Below, in pieces: positions 3,707 through 19,677 of a DNA stretch of 32,000 bases. Both the position numbers and the translations under genes were made by a program. Source of the stretch: Myxococcota bacterium (GTDB lineage: Bacteria > Myxococcota_A > Polyangia > Polyangiales > Sandaracinaceae); contig JAYZQJ010000191.1 in NCBI GenBank assembly GCA_036149055.1, forward strand, positions 11,716 to 43,715. Reading direction: 5' to 3'. The notes beneath the pieces were generated by a model that searched no databases, was not told where the DNA came from, and saw only the letters and a list, made by a program, of their open reading frames with translations. The first letter of the stretch is position 1. Each line of letters begins with the position of its first letter.

Positions 3707-6220
3707 GTGACGAGCAGTATCTCCGGTCTCTACCGGCTCACCCTCGAGGAGCGTCGCGAGCGCATCCGGCGGGCCACGGGCCTCGACGCCGACGCGCTCG
3801 GTCGGCTCGAGCCCGACGACGGGCTCTCCGGTGCCCAGGCCGATCGCATGGTCGAGAACGCCCTCGGGGTGTTCGGTCTGCCCTTCGGCGTCTGCGTCAA
3901 CATGCAGATCGACGGCCGCGACGTGCTCGCGCCGATGGTGGTCGAGGAGCCGAGCGTCATCGCCGCGTGCTCCTACGCCGCCAAGCTCCTCCGGGCCGGC
4001 GGCGGCGTCGAGGCGGAGTGCAGCGAGCCGCGCGTCATCGGGCAGCTCCAGCTCATGGAGGTCGCGGACCCGAAGGCGGCCACCGAGGCGATCCTCGGCG
4101 CCGAGGAGGAGCTGCTCGCGCTCGCCAGCGCCGGGCACCCGCGCCTCGCCAAGGCCGGCGGCGGCGCCCGGGCGATCCGGGTCCGCGAGCTGCCGCGCAT
4201 CGAGGCGGACGATCCCTGCGGCGACATGCTCGTCGTGCACCTCTCGGTCGACGTGCGCGACGCGATGGGCGCCAACGCGGTGAACTCGATGTGCGAGCGG
4301 ATCGCGCCCCGGGTGGCCGAGCTCAGCGGCGGCCGGGTCGCGCTGCGCATCCTCTCGAACCTCACCGACGAGCGCACCGTCACGGTGGTGGGCCGGGTCC
4401 CGTTCTCGCTGCTCGACGGCAAGGGCACGGCCAACGGCGAGGAGCTCGCCAAGCGCATCGAGGAGGCCAGCGTCTTCGCCGAGCGCGACCCCTACCGCGC
4501 CTGCACTCACAACAAGGGCATCATGAACGGCGTCGACGCGGCGCTGATCGCCCTCGGCCAGGACTGGCGCGCGGTCGAGGCCGGCGCGCACGCCTACGCC
4601 GCCAAGGACGGCCGCTACACCGCGATGGCGCGCTGGCGGGTCGAGGACGGCCACCTCGTGGGCCGCATGACCATCCCGCTCGCGGTCGGCACCGTCGGGG
4701 GCGTGGCCAAGTCGCACCCGGTCGTCGCCGTGGCCCGCGACATCGCGCAGGCGAGCTGCGCCGAGGACGTGGCCAAGCTCTGCGCCGCGGTCGGCCTCGC
4801 CCAGAACCTGGGCGCGCTCCGGGCGCTCGCCGCCGAGGGCATCCAGCGCGGGCACATGCGCCTGCACGCCCGCAACGTCGCGATCGAGGCGGGCGCCGCC
4901 GAGCACGAGGTGCTCGAGGTGGCCAAGCGCATCGCGGACGCCGGTCAGGTCAACGCGCGGCACGCCGCCGCGGTCATTCGCGAGATCCGCGGCGCGGGGG
5001 CGGCCGAGCCGGCCCCGATCGCGATCGCCGCCCGGGCGCCGAGGAAGCGCCCCCCCACCCCGGCGACGCCGCCGATCGAGACGATCGAGGAGGACGAGAT
5101 GAGCGAGCTGCGACCCATCGAGCACGAGCTCGGAGGCACGATCCTGGTCACCGGCGCGGCCGGACACCTCGGCGCCAACCTGGTGCACCGGCTCCTCGAA
5201 GAGGAGGGCGTGCGGGTTCGCGTGCTGCTCCGCGAGGGCTCGAACAACGCGGCGATGGACGGCCTCCCGGTCGAGCGCGTGTACGGCGATCTCCGCGATC
5301 GCGACGCGCTCGGGCCGGCGGTCGAGGGCTGCCGCTACGTCTTCCACGCGGCCGCGCAGCTCTCCACCGTGGAGCCGACCCCCGAGATCCGCCGCGAGGT
5401 GTGGGAGAGCAACGTGCTCGGCACCCGCAACGTGCTCGCCGCCGCCCGCGAGGCGAACGTCGAGCGCGTCGTCGTGACCGGCAGCTTCAGCGCGACCGGC
5501 TACGACCTCGACGACCCGAGCGTGGCCGGCGACGAGTCGATGCCGTTCTGGCCCTTCGACGACTCGCTCCCCTACGTGCACAGCAAGGTGCTCACCGAGC
5601 ACGAGACGCTGAAGGCCTGCGTCGAGGGCCTCGACGCGGTCATCGTGACGAGCTGCGCGTTGCTCGGCCCGCACGACCACAAGCCGTCGCGCATGGGCCA
5701 GACGCTCATGGACTTCGCGAACGGCAAGATGCCCGCCTACATCCCGGGCGGCTTCTCGTTCGTCGCCGCGCGCGACATCGTCGAGGGTCACATCCGCGGC
5801 CTCCAGCGCGGCGCGACCGGCCAGAAGTACATCATCGCCACCCAGTACGTGGAGGTGGACGAGCTGATGGGCATCTTCGAGGAGGTCAGCGGTCACCCGC
5901 GGCCGAAGCTCCGCCTGCCGGTCGGCGTGATGGCCCCGGTGGCCGAGGTCTCGAGCTTCGTGCTCGGCAACTTCTTCCCGAAGAAGCCGCAGCGCCTCAC
6001 CCCCGCCGCGGTGAAGATCCTCAACCAGCGTCGCCGCGCCAGCTTCGAGCGGGCCCGCCGCGAGCTCGGCTACGAGCCGACGAGCATCCGCCAGGCCGTG
6101 CACGAGGCCTACGCCGACTTCGCGCGCCGCGGGCTCGTCCCCGCCCGCGAGGGCACCACCGAGGCGCCGGTCACCGAGCGCAGCGAAGAGAGCCGCGCCC
6201 GCGCGGCCACCGGGAGCTGA
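3707..6220 (+). CDS. Fusion protein: class II (NAD(P)H) HMG-CoA reductase (aa 1-430) + extended SDR, HpnA/3beta-hydroxysteroid-dehydrogenase-like NAD-dependent epimerase/dehydratase family (aa 465-837)
   Basis: It starts at GTG with SD GAGGAGG. Class II HMGR catalytic motifs are present: VVEEPSV (Glu), THNKGIMNG (Lys), GQDWRAVEAG (Asp), EGIQRGHMRLHARN (His), and ENALGVFGLPFGV...QIDGRDVLAPMV. After a Pro/Ala/Arg linker come the SDR motifs VTGAAGHLGANLV (TGxxGxxG) and YVHSK (YxxxK). It is a single uninterrupted frame with high GC3 throughout. Confidence 0.92.
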   Translation: MTSSISGLYRLTLEERRERIRRATGLDADALGRLEPDDGLSGAQADRMVENALGVFGLPFGVCVNMQIDGRDVLAPMVVEEPSVIAACSYAAKLLRAGGGVEAECSEPRVIGQLQLMEVADPKAATEAILGAEEELLALASAGHPRLAKAGGGARAIRVRELPRIEADDPCGDMLVVHLSVDVRDAMGANAVNSMCERIAPRVAELSGGRVALRILSNLTDERTVTVVGRVPFSLLDGKGTANGEELAKRIEEASVFAERDPYRACTHNKGIMNGVDAALIALGQDWRAVEAGAHAYAAKDGRYTAMARWRVEDGHLVGRMTIPLAVGTVGGVAKSHPVVAVARDIAQASCAEDVAKLCAAVGLAQNLGALRALAAEGIQRGHMRLHARNVAIEAGAAEHEVLEVAKRIADAGQVNARHAAAVIREIRGAGAAEPAPIAIAARAPRKRPPTPATPPIETIEEDEMSELRPIEHELGGTILVTGAAGHLGANLVHRLLEEEGVRVRVLLREGSNNAAMDGLPVERVYGDLRDRDALGPAVEGCRYVFHAAAQLSTVEPTPEIRREVWESNVLGTRNVLAAAREANVERVVVTGSFSATGYDLDDPSVAGDESMPFWPFDDSLPYVHSKVLTEHETLKACVEGLDAVIVTSCALLGPHDHKPSRMGQTLMDFANGKMPAYIPGGFSFVAARDIVEGHIRGLQRGATGQKYIIATQYVEVDELMGIFEEVSGHPRPKLRLPVGVMAPVAEVSSFVLGNFFPKKPQRLTPAAVKILNQRRRASFERARRELGYEPTSIRQAVHEAYADFARRGLVPAREGTTEAPVTERSEESRARAATGS
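5087..5101 (+). promoter_or_regulatory. In-frame internal Shine-Dalgarno (GAGGAGG) + ATG at the HMGR/SDR domain junction
   Basis: GAGGAGG (5087-5093) is followed by 5 nt and then ATG (5099-5101). That ATG encodes the Met of MSELRPIEHELGGTILVTGAAG, the exact start of the SDR domain. Whether it functions as an internal start is untested. Confidence 0.35.
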
Positions 6221-6223
6221 GCC

Positions 6224-18076: not shown

Positions 18077-19677
18077 TCGAGACGTTCGACTACGTCGTGG
18101 TCGGCGGGGGCTCCGCCGGCTGCATCGTCGCGGCCGAGCTGAGCGAGGATCCGCGCGTCCGGGTGCTGCTCCTCGAGCGCGGGGACGACGCGCAGGAGCA
18201 CCCCGAGACGCTCCGCGCCGACGGCTACAAGGACGCGTTCGCGAACGACGCGCTCGTGCTCGAGCGCTTCAGCGTGCACGCCGATCGCTGGGGTGACCGC
18301 CGGCTCTTCATGGGCTCGGGGCACGGCCTCGGCGGCAGCGGCAACATTAACGGCATGGTCTACACCCGCGGCGCAAAGGTCGACTACGACGCCTTCCCCG
18401 AGGGCTGGCGCTGGGCCGACGTGGTGCCCGACTTCGAGCGCATCGAGGCGCAGCTCCGCCCGCGCCCCCGCGCGGCGACGGCCTTCACCGAGGTCTGCCT
18501 CGACGCGGCCGAGGAGGCGGGCTTCGCGCGCTCGAAGGACCTGAACGACGGCGACCTCGGCGGGGTGCTCGGCTACGAGCACATGAACTACGAGGGTGAC
18601 GACCGGCGCAGCAGCTACGTCGCCTTCCTCCTGCCCGCGCTCGACCGCGGCAACCTCGTGGTCCGCACCAACGCGAAGGTCGAGCGCCTCACCGTCGACG
18701 AGCGGGGCGTCACCGGCGTGCGCTACGCCTGGGACGGCGGCGACCACGAGGCGCGGGCGGTCCGCGAGGTGGCGATGTGCGCCGGCGCCCTCGAGACGCC
18801 GCGCCTGCTGATGCTCTCGGGCATCGGGCCGAGCGGCGCGCTCCGGCACGTGGGCCTGCCCGCGGTGCACGAGGTGCCCGGGGTGGGCGAGAACCTCCAC
18901 GACCACCCGAACGTGAGCCTCTTCTTCCGCGGTCAGCGCGAGGTCGACTGCAACTACCCGCAGCTCTACGGCTTCCACCGCGCGAACGAGGCGACCGACC
19001 TGCCCGAGGGCGCGAGCGACACCTGCTACGTCTTCTACCCGGCCCGCAGCTCGCTCAAGGAAGCGATGATGCGCATGCTGCCGACGCTGGTGCTGCCGGA
19101 GCCGCTCTACGATCTGCCCGCGATGCCCAAGCTGGTGCGCGGCGGCGTGCGCCTCGCCTTCGGGCCGCGCGCGATGCGAGAGGCGGTCAAGCGCGTCTAC
19201 GGCATCGTCGTCATCCTCGGCAAGCCCAAGAGCCGCGGCCGGCTCCGGCTCACCGCCTCGAGCCCGAGCGCCCCGGCGGCGATCGACCCGGGCTACTTCG
19301 CCGACCCCGAGGACATGGAGACGATGATCCGCGGCGTCGAGCGCGCCCGCCGCATCGCCCGCGCGCAGCCGCTCCGGTCGTGGGGCAACACGGAGCTCTT
19401 CCCCGGCCTGCTCGGGCGCTCGCGCGACGCGATCGAGGGCTGGATCCGGCAGAACGTGATGACCACGTATCACTACGCCGGCACCTGCGCGATGGGCGAC
19501 AACGGCGCGAGCGTGTGCGATCCGCGCCTCCGGGTGCGGGGCGTGCGCGGCCTCCGGATCGCCGACGCCTCGGCCATCCCGTTCACGCCGGTCTCGGCCC
19601 TCAACGCCCCCTCCATGCTGGTCGGCCACCGCGCCGCCCGCTTCATGCGCGAAGAGTCCCCAAGCGTGGACGCCTGA
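18073..19677 (+). CDS. GMC-family FAD oxidoreductase (choline dehydrogenase / alcohol oxidase-like)
   Basis: This is the real part of track ORF 16936-19677. Its ATG overlaps the ALDH stop (ATGA at 18073-18076). Motifs present: DYVVVGGGSAGCIVAAELSED...LLLERG, GGSGNINGMVYTRG, LMLSGIGP, YHYAGTCAMG (active-site His), IADASAIP. Confidence 0.92.
   Translation: MIETFDYVVVGGGSAGCIVAAELSEDPRVRVLLLERGDDAQEHPETLRADGYKDAFANDALVLERFSVHADRWGDRRLFMGSGHGLGGSGNINGMVYTRGAKVDYDAFPEGWRWADVVPDFERIEAQLRPRPRAATAFTEVCLDAAEEAGFARSKDLNDGDLGGVLGYEHMNYEGDDRRSSYVAFLLPALDRGNLVVRTNAKVERLTVDERGVTGVRYAWDGGDHEARAVREVAMCAGALETPRLLMLSGIGPSGALRHVGLPAVHEVPGVGENLHDHPNVSLFFRGQREVDCNYPQLYGFHRANEATDLPEGASDTCYVFYPARSSLKEAMMRMLPTLVLPEPLYDLPAMPKLVRGGVRLAFGPRAMREAVKRVYGIVVILGKPKSRGRLRLTASSPSAPAAIDPGYFADPEDMETMIRGVERARRIARAQPLRSWGNTELFPGLLGRSRDAIEGWIRQNVMTTYHYAGTCAMGDNGASVCDPRLRVRGVRGLRIADASAIPFTPVSALNAPSMLVGHRAARFMREESPSVDA

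Follow-up and report, generated by a model that had tools for sequence, protein, structure and literature searches.

A myxobacterial sterol operon of the Sandaracinus amylolyticus type with a candidate FAH/GMC/ALDH module for C-4 methyl oxidation

Eight plus-strand genes in a 32,000-nucleotide stretch of contig JAYZQJ010000191.1 (the window) very probably form a de novo sterol biosynthesis operon of a known type, sharing homology and gene order with the cholesterol gene cluster of Sandaracinus amylolyticus, in an uncultured Sandaracinaceae-like myxobacterium. The core of this cluster and its four gene fusions are already known. What look new are the inclusion of genes for an enzyme of the fatty acid hydroxylase (FAH) superfamily, a GMC oxidoreductase and an aldehyde dehydrogenase (ALDH), the exclusion of SdmA, ERG24 and ERG2, and two worn domains, namely an eroded epoxidase module fused to the oxidosqualene cyclase (OSC) in gene g3 and an OSC remnant within g4, the protein that carries squalene synthase (SQS). 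For the locus as a whole, we consider it likely that an operon of the S. amylolyticus type has been combined with an FAH/GMC/ALDH trio acting on the C-4 methyl groups and with the decay of individual domains.

Bacterial sterol pathways stand at the centre of the debate on the origin of eukaryotic sterol synthesis and of that on the reading of sterane biomarkers. Bacterial C-4 demethylation by the Rieske protein SdmA together with SdmB has been taken as evidence of an invention independent of the eukaryotic ERG25/26/27 enzymes. If true, an FAH-based bacterial route paired with a 3β-hydroxysteroid dehydrogenase (3β-HSD) would blur this distinction. The OSC remnant in the SQS fusion, along with the decayed epoxidase on the OSC fusion, illustrates the evolution of multi-domain sterol enzymes and suggests that the steps from squalene to lanosterol are physically coupled.

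Eight tightly packed genes

The window is about 73% G+C, and raw lists of its open reading frames (ORFs) are crowded with spurious long frames; gene models were drawn from a GC3 frame plot (G+C by codon position), ORF coordinates and translation. The eight genes, g1 to g8, span 3707-19677, and the junctions between them (3, -1, 44, -4, 7, 14 and -4 nt, in order) match exactly those given in an initial annotation of this DNA. The same eight proteins emerged from gene calls made independently on an identical Logan contig. All eight are intact and free of frameshifts, and GC3 is 0.96-0.99 in the operon genes where it was measured on single-gene reading frames. The initial annotation had described a compact operon with HMG-CoA reductase (HMGR), SQS, squalene monooxygenase (SQMO), OSC and CYP51~ferredoxin, in which four of the eight polypeptides are fusions (written here with a tilde). 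Pfam and NCBIfam profile searches support every one of its domain calls, and g4 is corrected to a three-part protein with an OSC remnant in the middle. The features of the operon, including one short-chain dehydrogenase/reductase (SDR) domain, are as follows.

3442-3706, + strand: presumed promoter region, 265 nt intergenic, between a divergent response-regulator-EAL gene and g1
3707-6220, + strand: g1, HMGR~SdmB-like SDR fusion
3707-4996, + strand: g1 N-terminal domain, predicted class II HMGR (PF00368, 8.5e-98; TIGR00532, 344 bits, cutoff 260)
5102-6220, + strand: g1 C-terminal domain, SdmB-like extended SDR (Pfam Epimerase/3Beta_HSD; NF052578)
6224-7345, + strand: g2, Bsr, predicted C-24 sterol reductase of the GGR family (FAD_binding_3/GGR_cat; TIGR02032, 157 bits)
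7345-10740, + strand: g3, SQMO-like~OSC fusion
7345-8724, + strand: g3 N-terminal domain, SQMO-like with eroded motifs (motif comparison and SQLE scores)
8755-10740, + strand: g3 C-terminal domain, predicted OSC (TIGR03463, 713 bits; VSDCTAEA)
10785-14105, + strand: g4, SQMO~OSC remnant~SQS, three parts
10785-12104, + strand: g4 N-terminal domain, predicted SQMO (PF08491 (SE), 9.3e-19; human SQLE, 9.6e-23)
12414-13019, + strand: g4 middle, predicted degenerate C-terminal third of an OSC (hhalign of family alignments)
13065-14105, + strand: g4 C-terminal domain, predicted SQS (PF00494 (SQS_PSY), 1.8e-42; Asp-rich motifs)
14102-14809, + strand: g5, FAH superfamily, 235 aa
14817-16487, + strand: g6, CYP51~ferredoxin
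14817-16196, + strand: g6 P450 domain, predicted CYP51 sterol 14α-demethylase (AGHHTSS and FGGGRHKCLG motifs; 6MCW match)
16242-16487, + strand: g6 C-terminal single-cluster ferredoxin (PF13370, PF13459; aligns to the 6MCW ferredoxin domain)
16502-18076, + strand: g7, ALDH
18073-19677, + strand: g8, GMC oxidoreductase

We infer from its structure that 3707-19677 is a single transcription unit, because the junctions are tight or overlapping, Shine-Dalgarno-like sequences precede most of the g1-g8 starts, a terminator scan found no plus-strand terminator-like site inside any intergenic gap of g1-g8, a 265-nt gap lies upstream, and the gene order is kept in relatives. A GAGGAGG ribosome-binding site lies 8 nt ahead of the GTG start of g1, and a consensus scan of the g1 upstream region found no sigma-70-like promoter. 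The 3′ boundary at 19677 is supported by a related locus (compared loci carry L numbers), L095, in which GMC is the last gene of the cluster and a convergent TetR gene comes next. The next two genes of the window, g9 (a hybrid histidine kinase) and g10 (S41-like), lie on the same strand and were considered as operon members; they were rejected, as L095 does not keep them after the GMC gene and a 99.5%-identical strain has lost most of g9. Adjacent Met codons at 14102 and 14105 offer two starts for g5, and the NCBI annotation uses the 234-aa form, with which g4 and g5 overlap by 1 nt instead of 4; the choice has no effect on our conclusions.

A core shared with Sandaracinus amylolyticus

S. amylolyticus makes cholesterol, and its locus, with isoprenoid-precursor genes among its members, is a published sterol gene cluster (Lee & Welander 2025, J Bacteriol, PMC12004948). 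In strain DSM 53668 (CP011125), the genes on one strand are an FMN-dependent gene resembling isopentenyl diphosphate isomerase (IDI), HMGR~SDR (875 aa), the Rieske gene, GGR, SQMO~OSC (1145 aa), ERG24, SQMO~x~SQS (1146 aa), CYP51~ferredoxin (592 aa) and ERG2. Six or more close relatives share this core. The window and the S. amylolyticus cluster have the four fusions in common, in the same order and on one strand, with Bsr between the HMGR fusion and SQMO~OSC, and the identities are 68% for HMGR, 61% for the SdmB-like domain, 73% for Bsr, 63% for OSC, 62% for the SQS-fused SQMO, 64% for SQS, 64% for CYP51 and 44% for the OSC-fused SQMO module.

The two clusters differ in their accessory genes. 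SdmA (the Rieske protein), ERG24, ERG2 and the FMN-dependent IDI-like gene are found in the S. amylolyticus cluster only, whereas FAH, ALDH and GMC are found in the window only. When the S. amylolyticus proteins were used in tblastn, SdmA, ERG24, ERG2 and type-2 IDI had no match at E<=1 in the 32-kb window, and Pfam detected no methyltransferase domain in any window gene scanned. This agrees with the initial annotation, in which neither ERG24 nor an SdmA-type Rieske protein nor a sterol methyltransferase had been seen here. The usual place of SdmA in relatives is the junction between the HMGR fusion and Bsr (g1/g2), and that of ERG24 is between the two big fusions (g3/g4). An ERG24-less g3/g4 junction is also present in an independent 88%-identical contig (L089), and an ERG2-less SQS/FAH junction in L095, while relatives at 71-74% identity carry ERG24 and ERG2 in the cluster.

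The initial annotation had regarded the architecture as uncharacterised, and in that case both epoxidase modules would be active, the fusions would be novel to this locus and the co-regulation of HMGR would parallel the eukaryotic sterol regulon in a new way, at the level of the operon. Its domain content and tight packing are real, and in the literature we searched we found no explicit discussion of the SQMO~OSC, SQMO~SQS and HMGR~SdmB fusions as such. However, the same fusions in the same order, isoprenoid-precursor genes included, make up the published S. amylolyticus cluster (PMC12004948), the SQMO~OSC fusion is represented by more than 120 protein clusters (90% identity, ~1130 aa) and by 457 confirmed matches in the genomes of GTDB species representatives, and the epoxidase module of g3 has eroded motifs. 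These results largely refute that view, which we now consider highly improbable. The hosts of SQMO~OSC fusions span many phyla and include Sandaracinaceae, Polyangiaceae (cultured Polyangium among them), cyanobacteria, sponge-associated gammaproteobacteria, Nitrospirota, Acidimicrobiia and others.

Enzymes of the sterol core

The SDR domain of g1 carries both the TGxxGxxG and the YxxxK motifs. Its best NCBIfam model is NF052578 (SdmB), with 303.6 bits against a cutoff of 600, and the S. amylolyticus domain, which adjoins SdmA, scores at the same level (300.6 bits). The initial label of SDR was right and can be made more exact: the domain is SdmB-like and a candidate 3β-hydroxysteroid-4-carboxylate dehydrogenase/decarboxylase. 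Likewise, the "GGR-like reductase" does belong to the GGR family and by homology is the known C-24 sterol reductase Bsr. It is 73% identical to the sole GGR homologue of the S. amylolyticus cluster, a Bsr that reduces zymosterol and desmosterol at C-24 (Lee & Welander 2025, PMC12004948), and it shows all the features by which that study recognised Bsr, namely close homology, the YxWxFP motif (YGWLFP in g2), an active-site Cys (DKTCGSG) and clustering with sterol genes.

The CYP51 synteny of the S. amylolyticus cluster is described in PMC7947880, and the CYP51~ferredoxin fusion has been known for years (PMC7947880); g6 is, as judged from its domains and best matches, a member of this fusion type. 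Pfam returned p450 at 8.4e-74 together with Fer4_13 (PF13370) and Fer4_15 (PF13459), and the best solved match is CYP51fx of Methylococcus capsulatus (6MCW; Lamb et al. 2020, PMC7947880), which it resembles over the full length including the ferredoxin (537 bits) and from which it does not differ notably. Among the matches listed, almost all above ~190 bits are named CYP51 or sterol 14α-demethylase.

The cyclase domain of g3 is predicted to make lanosterol. Pfam places SQHop_cyclase_N at 7e-51 and SQHop_cyclase_C at 9e-54, the catalytic VSDCTAEA is present, and the match to human lanosterol synthase (1W6K) is 428 bits; the TIGR03463 score of 713 bits is under the cutoff of 851. A Val aligns with human V453, while H aligns with C449 and A with T381. 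Val at the position of V453 is taken as diagnostic of lanosterol synthase (PMC10152446), and it is this single residue from which we predict the product. In the SQS domain of g4, both aspartate-rich motifs are present (DTVED and DVTDD), and the best NCBIfam model is TIGR01559 with 120 bits, against 57 for HpnD, 46 for HpnC and 46 for CrtB, all under their cutoffs.

With these assignments, which are backed by homology to characterised enzymes, HMGR (g1, N-terminal) would raise the supply of mevalonate, SQS (g4, C-terminal) would turn farnesyl diphosphate into squalene, the canonical SQMO module (g4, N-terminal) would epoxidise squalene to oxidosqualene, and OSC (g3, C-terminal) would cyclise it, probably to lanosterol. 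CYP51~ferredoxin (g6) would then take off the 14α-methyl group, converting lanosterol to 4,4-dimethylcholesta-8,14,24-trienol, and Bsr (g2) would saturate C-24.

Two unequal epoxidase modules and a cyclase remnant

The initial annotation had counted two squalene-epoxidase modules, and both are present, but they are not equivalent. The g4 module has all canonical flavoprotein motifs (GxGxxG, RxxGExLxP, GADG and GDAxxxxHPxTGxGMT), whereas the g3 module reads GASVAG for GAGxxG, QHVGAW for RxxGEW, FAAG for GADG and AAGPS for GxGMT. Pfam SE reaches 2.2e-05 in g3, and human SQLE matches the g3 module with 40.5 bits (1.4e-9, in two fragments) versus 84 bits (9.6e-23) for the g4 module. In a motif table of 102 modules, the SQS-fused SQMO copies are uniformly canonical, and the OSC-fused copies of loci with two SQMO modules are relaxed, most of all in the clade of the window. 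The g3 module is always 10-19 identity points below the OSC of the same protein, as in L004 (63 vs 77%) and S. amylolyticus (44 vs 63%). We presume that the g4 module is the active epoxidase. Since the g3 module is still conserved, it probably has a diverged or non-catalytic role, e.g., docking or substrate hand-over, with its fold probably kept and its activity doubtful.

The ~300-aa "linker" of g4 appears from profile alignment to be a decayed OSC C-terminus. An alignment of 15 sequences (A2) was compared with the SQMO~OSC alignment (A1) by hhalign, giving a probability of 99.1% and E 8.6e-19, and the A2 profile matches squalene-hopene cyclase and OSC structures at 5e-11 and 4e-10. The g4 middle aligns to template columns 857-1119 of A1, starting just past the DCTAE position, and the catalytic Asp is absent. 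An OSC remnant at this place would mean that g4 descends from an SQMO~OSC fusion. A recent tandem duplication within Sandaracinaceae was considered as the source of the two SQMO modules and was dropped after a neighbour-joining tree, a crude method used here with a long-branch outgroup, placed the SQS-fused SQMO modules as a clade outside the whole set of OSC-fused ones; the origin would be older or xenologous.

A conserved FAH/GMC/ALDH module

The FAH, GMC and ALDH genes form a conserved module, and two other lineages have it together with CYP51 and a 3β-HSD-type SDR. The FAH protein g5 (FA_hydroxylase, PF04116, 8.6e-21) is a short membrane-bound di-iron enzyme of the FAH superfamily and a candidate sterol methyl hydroxylase. 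In its family of ~225-235 aa, all eight histidines of the His-box are invariant (H116, H120, H129, H132, H133, H208, H211 and H212), and its AlphaFold2 model is an all-helical membrane protein with a pLDDT of 84.5. Two large homologue searches recovered it only from metagenome-assembled genomes (MAGs) of uncultured Myxococcota, under generic "sterol desaturase family" names, with no cultured organism and no S. amylolyticus protein among them. The NAD(P)-dependent aldehyde dehydrogenase g7 (Aldedh, PF00171, 1.8e-138) has orthologues of 72-77% identity beside FAH and GMC in L085, L086, L091 and L095, and of 51-56% in a distant lineage. The GMC protein g8 (GMC_oxred_N, PF00732; GMC_oxred_C, PF05199) has orthologues of 70-73% identity in relatives and of 52-55% in the distant lineage. 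Its best solved relatives are the chloramphenicol primary-alcohol oxidase (CmO, 8B7S), fatty-acid photodecarboxylase (FAP), and alcohol and choline oxidases, which by homology places it in the primary-alcohol-oxidising branch of the GMC flavoproteins. A GMC cholesterol oxidase was also considered and rejected, as NF058674 reached only E 2.6e-4 and the best solved relatives lie elsewhere.

Within sterol loci, the trio is found only in the clade of the window (the window, L004/L005, L007, L095 and L096), all without SdmA, and no SdmA-bearing locus has it. Among relatives the trio is kept at 70-78% identity. Elsewhere, a stand-alone unit of ALDH, GMC, FAH and CYP51~ferredoxin lies among housekeeping genes in L085 and L091, where the FAH is 52-62% identical to g5, and ALDH, GMC and FAH units without a P450 are found in L086, L087 and L098. 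In the distant lineage (GC ~61%), an FAH of 33-38% identity has GMC and ALDH genes (51-56%) no more than a few kb away on at least 22 metagenomic contigs, and the ALDH identity is far over the ~34% of a paralogous ALDH. There, the neighbours of the FAH are an FNR-like FAD/NAD/2Fe-2S reductase, which may bear on electron supply, and a PF01073 3β-HSD (213 bits); in ~20 or more contigs the 3β-HSD directly follows the FAH. FAH, 3β-HSD and CYP51 stand in a tight array in L154, and its P450 is a genuine CYP51, matching that of M. capsulatus with 470 bits.

Decarboxylation by a 3β-HSD is limited to a carboxyl group on the carbon adjoining C-3, i.e., C-4, and ERG26/NSDHL and SdmB work in this way. Given this limit, a series of hydroxylase, GMC and ALDH enzymes next to a 3β-HSD led us to propose the C-4 methyl group as the substrate of the trio. 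FAH (g5), GMC (g8) and ALDH (g7) would oxidise it in series from CH3 to CH2OH, CHO and COOH, and the SdmB-like SDR (g1, C-terminal) would then 3β-dehydrogenate and decarboxylate the product, so that the trio and the SDR would stand in for the Rieske protein SdmA. This assignment of the trio is tentative, and we hold it as somewhat less than an even chance. The initial annotation had suspected a non-canonical tailoring chemistry, and this is plausible for a more specific reason than the one it gave, because FAH, GMC and ALDH are conserved together and occur with CYP51 and 3β-HSD-type SDRs.

In eukaryotes, C-4 demethylation is carried out by ERG25/SMO, of the FAH superfamily, and ERG26/NSDHL, a 3β-HSD (PF01073), and ERG25 alone does all three oxidations. 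As in that system, a di-iron FAH enzyme is here paired with a 3β-HSD-type SDR, and the pair lies beside CYP51 (in L154 and L132, and in the window via the fused SdmB-like domain); the chemistry would be ERG25- and ERG26-like with its oxidations split over three enzymes. Unlike in the eukaryotic system, the FAH of the window is accompanied by GMC and ALDH. At 235 aa, g5 is far smaller than ERG25, orthology between the two could not be demonstrated, and no ERG27 or ERG28 was seen. A mechanistic analogy, and only that, is offered by AlkB/AlkJ/AlkH of Pseudomonas putida GPo1, in which a membrane di-iron His-box hydroxylase, a GMC-family alcohol dehydrogenase and an aldehyde dehydrogenase convert CH3 to COOH. 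The three-enzyme logic is alike, but AlkB is not of the PF04116 family and the substrate of the trio would be a sterol. Compared with the SdmA/SdmB system of Methylococcus capsulatus (Lee et al. 2018, as cited in PMC12004948 and PMC10202945), the C-terminal domain of g1 is SdmB-like, but it scores under the curated cutoff, the window has no Rieske SdmA, and the oxidations are assigned to FAH, GMC and ALDH.

Several observations weigh against this proposal. All function has been read from homology and gene context, and the absence of SdmA, ERG24 and ERG2 applies to the 32-kb window and not to the genome. The short FAH family of g5 has no characterised member, ERG25 orthology is not demonstrable, a profile search against PDB sequences gave no match, and a fold search (Foldseek vs PDB) gave no informative class, with a weak Scs7p match alone (E 0.37). 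In ten loci with two SQMO modules, SdmA and the trio are both missing within 10 kb, so the anticorrelation between SdmA and the trio draws on few independent loci. The SDR of the distant lineage has its highest scores against OleD-type models, so non-sterol lipids are conceivable substrates for those clusters, although the CYP51 gene of the L154 array speaks against this. The HMGR-fused SDR domain has decayed in the two nearest MAGs with the trio (34% identity in L005 and 31% in L007, versus 80% for HMGR), which implies that the trio does not depend on that domain. As for the epoxidases, Ser or Ala in place of the Asp of "GADG" also occurs in single-copy and presumably active SQMO~OSC proteins, so motif erosion alone is no proof of lost activity in g3.

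In L007 a stop codon parts the SDR domain from HMGR (6387-7961 and 7965-8870; the L005 counterpart is 6524-8860). Both L005 and L007 keep ERG24 and ERG2, and the window shows the opposite pattern.

The FAH could instead be an ERG3-like C-5 desaturase, or another hydroxylase of the nucleus or side chain, with GMC and ALDH oxidising a different position (e.g., a terminal methyl of the side chain to a sterol acid) or a non-sterol substrate, while SdmA and SdmB act at C-4 and sdmA, erg24 and erg2 lie elsewhere in the genome. Cholesterol pathways of the S. amylolyticus type do need a C-5 desaturase of the FAH family, sterol genes are often scattered in myxobacteria (PMC10202945; PMC10152446), the SdmB-like domain, which usually partners SdmA, is intact in the window, and the ten two-SQMO loci mentioned above show that SdmA can be missing nearby even where the trio is missing too. 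However, a desaturase needs no alcohol or aldehyde dehydrogenase, and yet ALDH, GMC and FAH are kept as a unit in three lineages; the frequent order of FAH followed by 3β-HSD is a pairing that makes chemical sense only for a C-4 carboxylate; and g5 has no S. amylolyticus orthologue. We therefore regard a desaturase or a differently placed hydroxylase as rather unlikely, although it is the most serious of the alternatives that we weighed.

Absence of ERG24 and ERG2 from the cluster

The absence of ERG24 and ERG2 from the cluster leaves two possibilities: either the product keeps a Δ8,14 or Δ8(14) nucleus, or ERG24 and ERG2, or an 8,14-Bsr, are encoded elsewhere in the genome. An NTF2-type 8,14-Bsr has been described in an uncultured Sandaracinus and co-evolves with ferredoxin-linked CYP51 (PMC13277303), and such an enzyme from elsewhere in the genome is a candidate that would make ERG24 and ERG2 both dispensable. 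A Pfam scan of the flanking ORFs of the window gave no match to an NTF2-like 8,14-Bsr; no 8,14-Bsr reference sequence was used.

The loss of ERG24, ERG2 and SdmA, taken with the erosion of one SQMO module, could also mean that the pathway is truncated or decaying and yields early sterols only (lanosterol or 14-demethylated Δ8,14 intermediates), which the trio would decorate or to which it would be unrelated. The genes for ERG24 and ERG2, present in the 71-74% relatives, are gone precisely at the g3/g4 and g4/g5 junctions; the former junction is the same in the independent 88% relative and ERG2 is also gone in L095, L005 and L007 show a decaying SdmB domain, and a 99.5%-identical strain has a deletion polymorphism just downstream. 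Nevertheless, the eight genes are intact, with high GC3 and no frameshifts, the catalytic motifs of OSC, CYP51, SQS, Bsr, SdmB and FAH are preserved, the identity at which the trio is kept among relatives indicates purifying selection, and an 8,14-Bsr elsewhere in the genome could replace both lost enzymes. On this evidence, a decaying pathway seems improbable.

A wider proposal joins the C-4 route to the history of the two large fusions. The trio, with an SdmB-like or 3β-HSD-type SDR, may be an unrecognised bacterial route of C-4 demethylation that replaces SdmA and, as a mobile "nuclear demethylation" module, accompanies CYP51 both in uncultured Myxococcota and in the distant sediment lineage; and the paired SQMO~OSC and SQMO~(OSC remnant)~SQS proteins may reflect reciprocal domain decay of two copies of a bifunctional fusion, perhaps within an SQS-SQMO-OSC channelling complex. 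Taken jointly, these two ideas are speculative, a shade more doubtful than the C-4 role of the trio by itself. We found nothing in the literature on FAH, GMC and ALDH in bacterial sterol synthesis; this search was incomplete and a weak sign of novelty.

Flanking genes and related loci

A Pfam scan of the genes flanking the operon in the window found no sterol genes. Upstream, at 2155-3441 on the minus strand, lies the divergent response-regulator-EAL gene (a c-di-GMP phosphodiesterase), which is also present in the 88% relative L089; at this position, other relatives (L004 and L090) have a polyprenyl synthase gene. Downstream, g9 (19696-21387) is affected in a 99.5%-identical JGI metagenome contig (L093, Ga0310345_10000185), which lacks 1506 bp corresponding to 19753-21258 of the window. 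The deletion is in frame (502 codons) and takes out most of the hybrid histidine kinase/response regulator, and it represents a strain-level presence/absence polymorphism of a sensor gene adjoining the sterol genes.

The distant FAH/GMC/ALDH cluster is seen at 3717-17092 of L132 and in ~20 similar marine-sediment contigs (e.g., L144, L152 and L160). In L132 it also encodes a DctP TRAP solute-binding protein, the FNR-like reductase, the PF01073 3β-HSD, DUF1214, a sulfotransferase, a classical SDR and a linalool-dehydratase/isomerase-like protein, and it may be a locus for the uptake and modification (sulfation?) of sterols or terpenoids. FAH relatives of at most 50% identity lie next to an ABHD18-like hydrolase and a tandem-GST-N protein in L088 (5740-8252) and L092 (7121-9629), a context that indicates a second functional subfamily of the short myxobacterial FAH proteins.

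Other domain fusions were seen outside the clade of the window. HMGR~SQS~SdmB triple and SQS~SdmB double fusions are apparently located just upstream of SdmA and SQMO~OSC in Polyangiaceae/Myxococcales MAGs (L019, L024, L033, L035, L044 and L045) and in cultured Polyangium spp. (L017, L018 and L020). They were called from shared stop-free frames in high-GC DNA and not from gene models; if real, they would make the fusion of sterol-pathway domains rampant and combinatorial in that order. Finally, the order SdmB, SdmA, ERG24, CYP51 and SQMO~OSC is highly conserved across phyla (L052-L084; gammaproteobacterial, Nitrospirota, Acidimicrobiia, Opitutales and Bryobacterales MAGs, many of them sponge-associated), which suggests a horizontally mobile sterol cassette.

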